Made by a program: the position numbers and the translations under genes
NCBI GenBank assembly: GCA_041571435.1
Contig: JBFFUI010000010.1
Coordinates: forward strand, 1 to 56,396
DNA length: 56,396 nucleotides
Reading direction: 5' to 3'
Origin: Sulfurimonadaceae bacterium
Lineage (GTDB): Bacteria > Campylobacterota > Campylobacteria > Campylobacterales > Sulfurimonadaceae
The notes under the pieces: model-generated
What the model was told of the DNA's origin: nothing
Seen by the model: only the letters and a program-made list of their open reading frames with translations
Database searches by the model: none
Part shown: positions 44,753 to 47,084 of the stretch, piece by piece
How the letters are laid out: every line of letters begins with the position of its first letter
How positions within the stretch are numbered: the stretch's first letter is position 1

Positions 44753-45097
44753 TTACTTCTCTGTTCTCTGGAGCTCTTTTTTGAACTCTTCCGAAAATGA
44801 AGTCGGCAGGATGGTCCTGTTGATCTTTCTAAAACCGATCTCTACGAATGCGACAACGACTGTACCGGCAGGCAGGGCGGCGATGACAAGCACGATGCTT
44901 ATCTTGATGATGTCAGCTGCCTGTTGTCGGATAAACGCTTTTTCGTCTTGTGTCTTAGCCTGTTTGTAGAGCAGGCGCAGCATGATAAGGGTCTCTTTAT
45001 ATTCGTTATGTGACTGGGCCTTTAAAAGCGCAATTCTCTCTCTGATCTCTTGGCGGCTGATCGTCGGCCGTTTGATGCGTTTAATGTACTTTCTCAT
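44753..45097 (-). CDS. Small hypothetical protein resembling a stand-alone LETM1-like membrane domain
   Basis: DEKAFIRQQAADIIK-[hydrophobic LPAG helix]-ILPTSF pattern. ATGA overlap with the upstream methyltransferase. Confidence 0.6.
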   Translation of the reverse strand: MRKYIKRIKRPTISRQEIRERIALLKAQSHNEYKETLIMLRLLYKQAKTQDEKAFIRQQAADIIKISIVLVIAALPAGTVVVAFVEIGFRKINRTILPTSFSEEFKKELQRTEK

Positions 45098-46038
45098 TTG
45101 TTGGGCACTGCCGTTAAAAAGATATACTCTTTGCCGCTGATACGGACCGTAAATCTCTTCTGTTGTAGATAGCGTTTTGCATAGTCGATGTCGCTAAGCA
45201 GAAGCGAGAGGTCCGATTCGCTGTAGTTGCGCATCTTTGCCCCGTAGACCATTTCTCCATCGATCCAGCGCGAGTTTGGAAACCCCAATATGATAGTGCC
45301 GTTGTCACTGAGATAGTGCTTGACAAGATCCATTAAGAAGGGCTTATAGTTGATGCCTGGGCTCTGCAGCGTGCCGATTGTGATAATAAGGTCGAACCGG
45401 CCTAGTTGCAATGTATCAAGGGCGTTGATGTCGTGGCTGTGGAAGTGCATGTTTGCTGTACTAAAACGGCTTTGCGCCGCTTCTATGGCACTTTTTGCAT
45501 GGTCGATACCGACAAATTCTATCTTCTCAAAGATCTCTTTTGGCAGCAGCTCTTTGATAAGAGCAAACTCATCACCACGGTTGACGCCGAGATTGAGTAC
45601 GCGTGTTTTAGATGCAATGTCAGCGATGTCAAGTGCCTGAAGATAGGCAGTCAGAAAAGCAGGCTCTTCGTTTTTGTTGATCGCAGAAAAGCTTGAACTT
45701 ACGCCGTACTTCTCTGACTTGTCTGCGGCTGCTTCGTCATGAAAAGAGTGTGTCTTTAGTTTTTGAAAACGGAGCATAATCGTCTGATCAGAGGCGGGTT
45801 CAGGTGTCAGCATACGGCAGTTCAGACACGTGGCAAGATCCAGCCAGGAACGCAGTGGACGGTAGAGGTGGCGTTTGCCATTGAGGTTGACCTCTTTGCC
45901 GGCGTAAGCACCGCTACAGAGGTCTGGGTTAAGAACTTCAATGGCAAGCTCCGGCTGCGTCTTCAGTGCTGCTTTGAGTGTGTTGGTGATGGCGAGCATA
46001 CTCTCATCGGTAAACTGTATGATGGGTTGTCCTGACAA
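45094..46038 (-). CDS. Class I SAM-dependent methyltransferase-like protein
   Basis: RVLNLGVNRG (variant motif I), FVGIDH and RFDLIITIGTLQ. The TTG start is uncertain. Confidence 0.82.
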   Translation of the reverse strand: MSGQPIIQFTDESMLAITNTLKAALKTQPELAIEVLNPDLCSGAYAGKEVNLNGKRHLYRPLRSWLDLATCLNCRMLTPEPASDQTIMLRFQKLKTHSFHDEAAADKSEKYGVSSSFSAINKNEEPAFLTAYLQALDIADIASKTRVLNLGVNRGDEFALIKELLPKEIFEKIEFVGIDHAKSAIEAAQSRFSTANMHFHSHDINALDTLQLGRFDLIITIGTLQSPGINYKPFLMDLVKHYLSDNGTIILGFPNSRWIDGEMVYGAKMRNYSESDLSLLLSDIDYAKRYLQQKRFTVRISGKEYIFLTAVPNK

Positions 46039-46250
46039 TATTGGAATCTATGATCGCTATTTTACCTAAAAAAAAGAGGGCTGGCGTTAATTTTTTTCGG
46101 CTTCAAAGACAAACTATTGCTTACTTACAGAAGAGCGGATCGAAGGCTGAAATCGTCATGGGTCTGCAGGTCGTAAAACTCCTGTGATGCCCTGTTTACT
46201 GGAGAATAATGGGGGTGGTTCAACTTAAGGAAATTTTTAGCTGAAAACGA

Positions 46251-46268
46251 TTTTTTTGGGGGTATAAT
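46251..46268 (+). promoter_or_regulatory. Sigma70 promoter for the structured-leader/peptide locus
   Basis: Perfect TATAAT at 46263-46268 preceded by T-tracts (46234-46238, 46251-46257), typical of Campylobacterota. Implies a TSS near 46275. Confidence 0.7.
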
Positions 46269-46274
46269 TTCGCT

Positions 46275-46574
46275 GTGAATCAGGCTGATAGAAAGCTATT
46301 TTGTATACCGACACTGCTTGGCGGTTCGTGTCGGTATACGACCTGAGAAACACGTTGGAATGTCGTTTTTTCCAGGAATGGTTACAGATAAACTGTAGCT
46401 GCAATCCTAGCAAAACAATCTTACCTCAAAATAAATATTGAGGTTACCTTCCGAGTGAAAAAACGTACGATTTATTATTATTCAAGCACAGTCAGGCTTT
46501 TAGCAGGACTGTGCGATGTGCTGTCTTTTGAGCAGAGAAACATTGTGAATAGATTATATAACAGGAGGCAGACA
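46275..46574 (+). ncRNA. Candidate ~300-nt structured leader RNA (no known family recognised)
   Basis: Stems GTATACCGACAC/GTGTCGGTATAC (46303-14/46328-39) closed by TCAGG/CCTGA; GGTTACAG/CTGTAGCT; ACCTCAA/TTGAGGT; GCACAGTC/GACTGTGC closed by TATTCA/TGAATA. Anti-SD at 46521-46530. Confidence 0.6.
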
Positions 46575-46745
46575 ATGCGAACATCTAAATGGTCGATATG
46601 TGAAAGCGGATCAAACCGAAGCCAGTGGTCAATAGGCGGCAAAAGTGTCGGACGAAAAAGTACTAAGAGAAATACAGCGCGTAAAACACAGTGGTCGATT
46701 GGTGGTCAATCATCCAGACAGACACAGTGGTCTATTGGCAGTTAA
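46575..46745 (+). CDS. 56-aa basic peptide with four [QK]WSI[GC] repeats
   Basis: SD AGGAGG (46563-68) 6 nt before the ATG. Sequence MRTSKWSICESGSNRSQWSIGGKSVGRKSTKRNTARKTQWSIGGQSSRQTQWSIGS. Repeat copies differ at synonymous codon positions. Confidence 0.8.
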   Translation: MRTSKWSICESGSNRSQWSIGGKSVGRKSTKRNTARKTQWSIGGQSSRQTQWSIGS

Positions 46746-46859: not shown

Positions 46860-47084
46860 ATGTACAAGGTGATCTATAAGTCTCCGTCAAAAGAGCATAT
46901 CAAGATGTTCAAGATGCAAGCAAGTGCCAATGAAGCATTTGCCAATTATAAAATTGACTTGAACGAATTGTCGAAGGAGCAGCGCGAGATGCTTCTGAAT
47001 AAATACGAACTGGACCAGAAAGTGCTCACGTATCAAGAGAGTCTTTTTCTTTCAGTACCACTGGCCGGCGCTCTTTCAGAGTAG
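46860..47084 (+). CDS. Orphan hypothetical protein (74 aa)
   Basis: SD-like AAGGTG just before the ATG (short spacing) and soluble-protein composition. Followed by a terminator-like hairpin. Confidence 0.65.
   Translation: MYKVIYKSPSKEHIKMFKMQASANEAFANYKIDLNELSKEQREMLLNKYELDQKVLTYQESLFLSVPLAGALSE

Follow-up and report, generated by a model that had tools for sequence, protein, structure and literature searches.

The stretch of DNA analysed here, referred to below as the window, comprises 56,396 nucleotides (nt) of a Sulfurimonadaceae genome (GenBank assembly GCA_041571435.1, contig JBFFUI010000010.1). An intergenic region of 538 nt (46039-46576) lies in it between a class-I methyltransferase-like gene on one side and a small open reading frame (ORF) on the plus strand on the other, and a feature within this region (46275-46551) had been predicted to be a structured 5' leader with two three-way junctions and to represent a novel cis-regulatory or non-coding RNA. 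Comparison with homologous sequences indicates that its first part, 46274-46431, is a previously uncatalogued structured RNA motif restricted to one bacterial family. It appears to make up the 5' portion of the leader in front of a small operon that starts with the gene of a Trp-repeat peptide, and we lean, with moderate confidence, towards a post-transcriptional switch acting in cis as its most likely role. The features of the locus are collected in Table 1.

The motif follows directly on a conserved promoter module, which also precedes the homologous copies. Its -10 box, TATAAT, is of the sigma-70 type and occupies 46263-46268 within a promoter-like site that scored 10/12. Transcription likely starts at about 46273-46277, as predicted from the geometry of this box, because an extract from a study of Campylobacter jejuni places the -10 box 4-8 nt upstream of mapped start sites, in promoters without a -35 box and ahead of the ribosome-binding site aAGGa (PMC3847290). 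This coincides with the beginning of the predicted feature, which thereby represents the 5' part of a leader of approximately 301 nt ending at the ATG at 46575. A 32-nt pattern derived from the promoter occurs twice in the 2.16-Mb genome when up to three mismatches are allowed, each time preceding a copy of the motif, while the reversed pattern used as a control has no occurrence. Since 46274-46431 is located between this conserved promoter and small ORFs, it is taken to be part of a leader.

Table 1. Features of the locus in window coordinates (G and L numbers stand for genomes and loci of the comparison)
Feature	Position	Strand	Remarks
Class-I methyltransferase-like gene	45094-46038	minus	Methyltransf_31 match; flanks the intergenic region on one side
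Promoter module TTAAG-N6-TTTAG..A/T tracts..GGGGGTATAAT	46225-46268	+	Conserved; kept in homologous loci
Core conserved RNA motif	46274-46431	+	Full-length match to covariance models R1 and R2
Helix UCAGG : CCUGA	46280-84 : 46342-46	+	
P0, small variable 5' hairpin GAUAG/CUAUU	46287-46300	+	Minimum free energy (MFE) fold of RNAfold
Helix GAUAG : CUAUU	46287-91 : 46296-300	+	
P1, stem of 12-14 base pairs (bp) with near-invariant 14-nt loop CUGCUUGGCGGUUC(G) at 46315-46327	46301-46341	+	
14-bp stem	46301-14 : 46328-41	+	Includes the perfect 12-bp stem
P2 5' strand (CCUGA + AAACAC) and P2 loop	46342-46361	+	
Strand X, GUCGUUUUUUCCAGGA	46362-46377	+	Common to three mutually exclusive helices
Alternative closure AGGA/UCCU	46375-78 : 46405-08	+	
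P3 hairpin UUACAG-AUAAA-CUGUAG	46382-46398	+	3' strand AAACUGUAAC conserved
Helix UACAG : CUGUA	46383-87 : 46393-97	+	
C/A-rich tail AUCCUAGCAAAACAAUCUUA, near-invariant	46404-46423	+	Family consensus AUCCUAACAAAACAAUCUUA; invariant alignment columns
P4 hairpin	46423-46444	+	Directly 3' of the tail; MFE fold of RNAfold
Helix ACCUCAA : UUGAGGU	46423-29 : 46438-44	+	
Distal complement of strand X, GAAAAAACGUACGAUUU	46455-46473	+	Only in leaders of the Trp-repeat gene (W-type); MFE helix and flanking pairs
Domain 2 of the original prediction	46479-46551	+	8-bp hairpin 46486-46514; CU-rich anti-Shine-Dalgarno stretch 46521-46530
Helix GCACAGUC : GACUGUGC	46486-93 : 46507-14	+	
Shine-Dalgarno (SD) sequence AGGAGG (46564-46569) and start codon ATG (46575-46577)	46562-46577	+	
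Gene of a very basic Trp-repeat peptide of 56 amino acids (MRTSKWS..QWSIGG x3)	46575-46745	+	First gene behind the leader
Gene of a 74-amino-acid protein (MYKVIYKSPSKEHIKMFKM...)	46860-47084	+	Conserved behind the Trp-repeat gene in G002 and G004

R1, a covariance model derived from six sequences, matched 46274-46431 with 180.7 bits (E 3e-36), and a further model (R2) with 139 bits. Among 61 related genomes, eight contained a match at the DNA level; the whole leader was matched at 93% identity in G002 and at 74% in G004, whereas in three genomes from other genera the match was confined to about 46224-46436. R1 found the motif in 20 of 151 sampled Sulfurimonadaceae genomes, which belong to 5 of 23 genera, whereas the 140 genomes representing 25 other families of the order contained no copy. 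When 185,579 species genomes were scanned with a pattern, 22 matches appeared, 15 of which passed the covariance model; according to their record titles, these are eleven metagenome-assembled genomes of Sulfurimonadaceae, one Sulfuricurvum, two 'Campylobacterales' and one 'Arcobacter sp.', and their scores are identical to those of the genomes found before. The remaining seven, from phyla other than Campylobacterota, failed the model and are regarded as chance matches, as are eight of twelve matches in metagenomes, the other four being additional copies. R2 also gave a weak match in G151, which falls within an ORF for a kinase and is regarded as false. The genome of the window (G000) carries a second, diverged copy of the motif (G000:C15:15143-15300(-), corresponding to L030:1501-1658(-)).

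The copies are associated with small ORFs. Among the 26 complete ones, to which one further copy cut by a contig end may be added, 17 precede an ORF of 68-77 amino acids that encodes a secreted Cys-rich protein with a signal peptide and the arrangement C-x6-C-x3-C...C-x3-C-x7-C, six including that of the window precede the Trp-repeat gene behind a long leader, one from a metagenome (L064) stands directly before a homologue of the 74-amino-acid ORF, and two (L027 and L028) lack a downstream ORF. The distance to the ATG, counted from where the tail of the motif begins, is 51-57 nt in all 17 short leaders of the Cys-type that were measured, and the W-type leaders are 300-305 nt long in five of six cases although their 3' halves differ. 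The Trp-repeat peptide, which is conserved in seven aligned sequences, contains four (K/Q)WS(I/V)(G/C) repeats, and its MRTSKWS start and GRKS centre are invariant. Its gene is unannotated and was found in two database clusters and in 6 of the 151 family members sampled; five of these six genomes have the motif upstream of it, the sixth being G129. The 74-amino-acid gene is the probable second gene of the operon; its family is present in 34 of the 151 genomes, mostly at other loci with ordinary short leaders, and at nine such loci that were inspected the strings of the motif were absent upstream. Behind the second copy in the window's genome, the ORF L030:1259-1471(-) encodes a secreted acidic protein of 71 amino acids whose six cysteines are arranged as C-x6-C-x3-C...C-x3-C-x7-C; from its sequence it looks like a disulfide-stapled helical hairpin. 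Pfam holds no family for either the Trp-repeat peptide or the Cys-rich protein and gave only matches below the curated cut-offs for the 74-amino-acid protein. Database searches with the small proteins returned two matches each, without names, and 'hypothetical' neighbours throughout (scores up to 0.86); an informative neighbour was found for none of the three proteins. Synteny is not conserved, the second locus of G000 being flanked by a RimK-like gene and other unrelated genes.

In line with the original prediction, which by eye had seen no match to several known RNA classes, none of the 4227 models of Rfam 15 matched at its gathering score anywhere in the window. At E values up to 10, only RF02376 (23.5 against a gathering score of 45 bits) and RF01932 (14.7 against 40 bits) appeared, and at E values up to 5 nothing overlapped the motif in 16 homologous loci. 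The RF02376 match to antisense_SR1 (opposite strand, 46349-46479, E 0.043) is taken as a chance match because it does not recur in these 16 loci; moreover, it lies on the wrong strand with respect to the promoter and the G-U pairs described below. Among the titles and opening lines of abstracts retrieved for Sulfurimonas in combination with riboswitches, small RNAs or transcription starts, none describes the element.

The conserved fold consists of a variable 5' hairpin, a long P1, P2 (CCUGA..UCAGG), P3 and a C/A-rich tail. On the structure stored with the alignment of the 26 rows, 85.3% of the cells are paired, compared to 77.3% after column shuffling and 28-43% with slid partners; 26 of the 34 pairs show changes on both sides, and not one of 500 shuffles reached any of the observed measures. 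These pair counts come from an alignment that was fitted to the model and thus favours the structure; the compensations are also plain by eye. P1 (helix 1) has 15 pairs, ten of which changed on both sides, and is paired in 93.2% of cells; its stem varies from UAUACCGACAC/GUGUCGGUAUA to UACACCGAUGC/GCAUCGGUGUG, CCCUCGAUG/CAUCGGGAG and others. In P2 (helices 2 and 3), double changes occur at 4/4 and 5/7 pairs: the outer helix CCUG/CAGG becomes UCUG/CAGA in L018, L027 and L028 and CCUA/UAGG in L020 and L065, and AAC/GUU of the inner helix becomes GAC/GUC. P3 (helix 4) has double changes at seven of eight pairs and is paired in 73.6% of cells. The near-invariant segments are the 14-nt loop of P1, CUGCUUGGCGGUUCG, and the tail. 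At the position of P0, other members have different hairpins such as AAAAUG/CAUUUU or AAAACAC/GUGUUUU; P4 has a counterpart at the same place in many Cys-type leaders, and its sequence is kept only in close relatives. G-U pairs are frequent, for example U-G in nine rows at pair 89/129, and fit the plus strand only, which on this sequence evidence is the strand of the motif. Insertions and deletions of 1 and 2 nt within the motif argue against coding, so that we regard it as non-coding. Pseudoknots of the P1 loop with the P2 loop (GUUC:GAAU) or with AACUG 3' of P3 were considered by eye, and their partners are not retained in L014, L015, L017, L027 and L028.

One copy departs from the others in an unusual way. 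In G133 (L025:1501-1656(-)) the entire P1 hairpin is inverted relative to its flanks, probably by a hairpin-mediated small inversion, which turns the loop sequence into its complement (..AACCGCCAAG..); on its opposite strand, this copy also matches the model with 46 bits. A symmetric DNA site would tolerate such a block inversion, and the arms of P1, at about +28 to +68 of the conserved promoter, form an almost perfect inverted repeat, as might be expected of an operator or cruciform. That the element acts at the level of DNA nevertheless appears very improbable to us, given that the arms vary yet stay complementary, that the G-U pairs correspond to A-C mismatches on the other strand, and that P2, P3 and the tail are conserved or covary without being palindromic.

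All helices listed in the original prediction recur, in place or shifted by 1-2 nt, in the MFE fold of 46275-46551 and among the helices of the full leader. Its suggested check of the folding energy also turned out in its favour, as 46275-46551 folds with -87.7 kcal/mol against -63.4 +/- 4.5 kcal/mol for dinucleotide shuffles (z -5.44, 0/200). The opposite strand folds nearly as well (z -5.28), and the folding energy alone can therefore not assign the strand; the core 46274-46431 by itself reaches z -3.32 (1/200). The MFE fold of the full leader contains, in addition, a long-range helix between 46364-72 and 46457-65 that the prediction did not list and that encloses the middle part. The architecture of two three-way junctions, by contrast, is not supported by the comparison, the first junction being lineage-specific and without covariation and domain 2 not being conserved beyond close relatives. 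The helices of the predicted domain 1 are present, but not as a conserved junction: the 5' strand UCAGG (46280-84) occurs only in five close W-type leaders, where it is invariant, whereas in all other homologues CCUGA pairs with its conserved, covarying partner, the downstream CAGG.

Domain 2 had been proposed as a second structured unit, and a conserved aptamer-like domain at 46479-46551 would find some favour in the fact that it folds somewhat better than shuffled sequence (z -2.62, 2/200), in the total length of 300-305 nt that most W-type leaders retain, and in CU-rich stretches resembling an anti-SD sequence that, aligned by eye, stand at the same place in G000, G002 and L062. We consider this improbable. 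The domain can be aligned only to G002 and L062, with unpaired changes; the differences between G000 and G002, which are 93% identical overall, are mostly concentrated in it; its 8-bp stem acquires an A-C mismatch in G002 rather than a compensated pair; and G004, G143 and L032 have unrelated sequence at its position. The closing helix UAUUCA/UGAAUA forms if the fold ends at 46551 and is lost once the SD sequence is included, since in the full-leader MFE fold 46521-30 pairs with the SD region (46562-71) and 46353-57 with the start codon. We therefore interpret domain 2 as an output or spacer region that evolves fast. Taken over the homologue alignment, compensatory changes are found in P1, P2 and P3, while the stems of domain 2 gain unpaired ones, and the prediction of a novel motif thus holds for 46274-46431, which has compensatory changes, occurs across genera and is without a match in Rfam, and not for the whole 277 nt.

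The two copies without a downstream ORF, L027:1501-1655(+) in G067 and L028:1501-1667(-) in G109, lack the usual promoter module and have a promoter-like site of their own. In L028, P2 is interrupted by an additional hairpin, and inspection by eye shows a GGGCGU..ACGCCC stem with a T run behind it downstream of the tail, where the terminator scan called no site. Both may be free-standing small RNA versions of the motif. They invite the explanation that the motif acts in trans or has a dual function, as a small RNA released from the 5' untranslated region (UTR) or as a decoy titrating a protein, with the tail or P1 loop as seed or binding site and the position before an ORF being secondary; a tail and a loop of invariant sequence are more readily understood as a seed or a protein-binding site than as purely structural parts. 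We judge this to be rather unlikely, since 24 of the 26 complete copies are followed directly, and at a fixed distance, by a small ORF in the same orientation. The promoter that an independent small RNA gene would need is present in the window, where no terminator-like site was found on the plus strand between the end of the core (46431) and the ORF start (46575). Complements of the P1 loop and the tail that were sought in the own genome comprised only copies of the motif or had counts near the control: no other sequence is complementary to the tail at 17 or more of 20 positions, and loop complements did not exceed the control counts. CsrA, the obvious protein to be titrated, was not found above the cut-off in this genome, which is scored as 100% complete. 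The best PF02599 match reached 21.4 bits against a cut-off of 27 bits and lies inside a frame of 726 amino acids, so that a leader bound by CsrA or a sponge of the CsrB type was rejected.

The reading that we favour, a switch acting in cis, derives from the observation that one strand (46362-46377, strand X) can pair with three different partners. Its family consensus is GUCGUUUUGU(N)CAGGA, or, written differently, GUCGUUUU(G)U(N)CAGGA. In state A, strand X pairs with 46342-52, the CCUGA..AAAC strand, in the covarying P2, and the tail is left free. In state B, it pairs with the tail (46405-16, UCCUAACAAAAC) and encloses P3, with the alternative AGGA/UCCU closure of the original prediction as the core of the helix. 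State C is confined to W-type leaders and joins strand X to the distal 46457-68 while CCUGA pairs with the 5' UCAGG; segments complementary to strand X appear, by eye, to be present in G002, L062, G004 and G143 as well. The alternatives are near-isoenergetic. In the window, states A, B and C have -90.4, -92.5 and -95.2 kcal/mol, C being the MFE fold, and the gap between A and B in the 17 short leaders is 0-7 kcal/mol, B being the lower of the two in 13 of them. The duplex energies of both A and B exceed those of shuffles in most rows, and a C of the tail pairs with the G of CAGG in strand X at a probability of at least 0.76 in 19 of 24 folds of the core alone. For 14 of the 17 leaders, the predicted accessibility of the region of the SD sequence and AUG is lower in state A, with a difference of at least 0.09 in ten.

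We hypothesize here that, once the leader is transcribed, strand X would choose among state A, state B and, in the lineage of the window, state C, and that the choice of conformer would alter the accessibility of the ribosome-binding region ahead of the Trp-repeat gene and the 74-amino-acid gene behind it. The invariant P1 loop and tail would be the likely contact surface for a trigger, whether a small ligand, a protein or some other RNA, and the output domains downstream of this core switch would be lineage-specific. In at least one relative, the conformer could decide whether a terminator forms in the leader: G143 (L012:1724-1750 (+)) has a terminator-like hairpin followed by T7 inside its W-type leader, approximately 67 nt past the core and before the start of the Trp-repeat gene, and this sequence suggests transcription attenuation in that lineage.

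Reduced forms of the leader bear on a simpler explanation. L079:1368-1503 (G129), L007, L008 and L070 possess the same promoter module and small genes, but their leaders are reduced or degenerate: they either lack the P1 loop, P2 and P3 or retain nothing but the 5' GCGG(A/G)UAGAA and a CA-rich tract. G129 retains the promoter and a leader of approximately 90 nt without the core before the Trp-repeat gene, and degenerate leaders precede the Cys-rich gene in G003, G013 and G006. Because these loci keep the promoter and the genes, the motif must have been lost or simplified repeatedly. In L008 and L070 it is the 5' hairpin and the CA-rich tract that remain, and this would suit a constitutive leader that does not switch, in which a stable 5' structure shields short mRNAs from 5'-end-dependent decay or the C/A tail aids ribosome loading and the alternative pairings are incidental. 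The very stable 12-14-bp P1 near the 5' end, the C/A-rich tract at a fixed distance from the start codon and the failure to find a conserved expression platform point in the same direction. Nonetheless, the invariance of a 14-nt loop and a 20-nt tail across genera goes beyond the needs of stability, P2 and P3 covary though they are unnecessary for 5' protection, and the complementarity of tail and strand X lies far above shuffled controls in most rows. We therefore hold a purely constitutive role to be unlikely, if a little less so than action in trans.

Several observations weigh against the cis-acting switch itself. The motif is dispensable, as G003, G013, G006 and G129 keep genes and promoter with reduced leaders, and two copies (L027 and L028) are not followed by an ORF. 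Helix B is without clean covariation, its tail strand being invariant; changes in strand X are compensated in its partner in helix A and not in the tail, L018, L027 and L028 break helix B, and swap tests of this helix for L024 and L064 were ambiguous. The partner of the SD region differs in each of the six W-type leaders, and the differences in accessibility are modest. The inverted P1 hairpin of G133 presents the complement of the consensus loop in the RNA, so that it may be asked whether the RNA requires this particular loop sequence. The start site and the status as a leader rest on the promoter match and its geometry, the alignment behind the pair counts was fitted to the structure of the model, and the downstream small-protein genes give no functional hint at a ligand or binding partner.

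Beyond the cis-acting switch, a more far-reaching proposal can be made, which we regard as speculative and would not expect to be correct in full. It supposes a new riboswitch-like class that exists only in the sulfur-oxidising Sulfurimonadaceae and has the motif as its sensor domain; the P1 loop and C/A tail would bind a metabolite, an ion or a dedicated protein as the signal and thereby flip strand X, switching on a hidden regulon of small proteins: the periplasmic, disulfide-stapled Cys-rich proteins, the Trp-repeat peptides and the 74-amino-acid proteins. The few free-standing copies could act in trans.

Two established types of RNA were considered for the leader and rejected. A leader-peptide attenuator was suggested by an in-frame UAA 12 codons after a CUG in many copies; in the alignments inspected by eye, however, the 'start' is CUG, UUG or UCG, stands directly after a stop and has no SD sequence, and a frame starting with GTG at 46455 is interrupted in G002. 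6S RNA was dismissed since the consensus fold has three separate helices and a tail and leaves its 5' and 3' ends unpaired with one another, and since two copies occur per genome, each fused to an ORF (compared with the 6S description in the same extract of PMC3847290).

Further observations concern the promoter and its surroundings. A sigma-54 promoter, judged by eye, was rejected because the GG-N10-GC spacing is not retained in other loci. The promoter module of the window (46225-46245) and of homologous loci holds cTTAAG-5bp-(A/T)TTTAG at about -51 to -35, and this strict pattern occurs once in the genome. In its likeness and in its position, expected for an activator of the OmpR type, it recalls the consensus ttTAAG-5bp-tTTAAg that overlaps Helicobacter pylori promoters activated by HP1043 (HsrA), as given in an extract of PMC8345958; it differs in that the second half-site deviates at a base which the same extract calls important. 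This sequence resemblance concerns the promoter and not the RNA, and we take it as a lead only. Just upstream of the module, at about 46185-46222, a conserved stretch (G)CCCTGTTTAC(T/C)GGAGA...GGGG has counterparts at the corresponding place in G002, G004 and G032 (L002, L003 and L005), which in G032 resemble a GC stem with a T run behind it. The stretch could mark where a different transcript ends or belong to the control region of the divergent gene. Another conserved intergenic block, ...CAAAGGCTTTTCTTTCAAAAAGTGGGCCGTTAAT.CTGAGTA..AATTATAC.., lies upstream of Cys-rich loci (L004:~1390-1470, L007:~1300-1380 and L008:~1460-1540), has a TATAAT-like box on its opposite strand and may represent a further small RNA or leader.

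Riboswitches and structured leaders are believed to be scarce among Campylobacterota, and in the extract of the C. jejuni study the thiamine pyrophosphate (TPP) riboswitch is the only one seen in mapped 5' UTRs (PMC3847290). The narrow distribution of the motif limits its scope. Within this limit, it would give these sulfur oxidisers, a group of ecological importance, an additional regulatory RNA, and it points to co-regulated, unannotated small proteins, two of them without a Pfam family. With a single promoter module, a single RNA fold and three very small genes, the system is concrete and testable and could reveal what is sensed.

Among known systems, platforms that sequester the SD sequence, as in riboswitches and RNA thermometers, offer a first comparison. 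They resemble the predicted pairing of the window's SD sequence with the CU-rich 46521-30 and of its start codon with 46353-57, and the lower accessibility modelled for most Cys-type leaders when the tail is free (14/17); the changing partners of the SD sequence among the W-type leaders and the small size of the predicted effects set the motif apart. A second comparison is with orphan riboswitch candidates and the 'Cis-reg' leaders of Rfam. The motif differs from these in matching no Rfam 15 model in the window or the 16 homologous loci, in its very narrow range within a single family, and in being conserved most strongly in its linear tail and in the loop that caps a long perfect stem, rather than in a multi-helix junction. 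No ligand can be guessed, because the genes it would control encode small proteins of no known function. With such candidates it shares the format of a 5'-UTR element of approximately 160 nt with several covarying helices, including the covariation generally looked for in an aptamer fold (26 of 34 pairs with double changes and 85.3% paired, in an alignment fitted to the model), as well as invariant loop and linker nucleotides, a fixed position before recurring genes and mutually exclusive pairing partners. It is therefore a well-supported conclusion that the first ~160 nt of the leader are an RNA motif that is new but of a known general kind, the structured regulatory leader.

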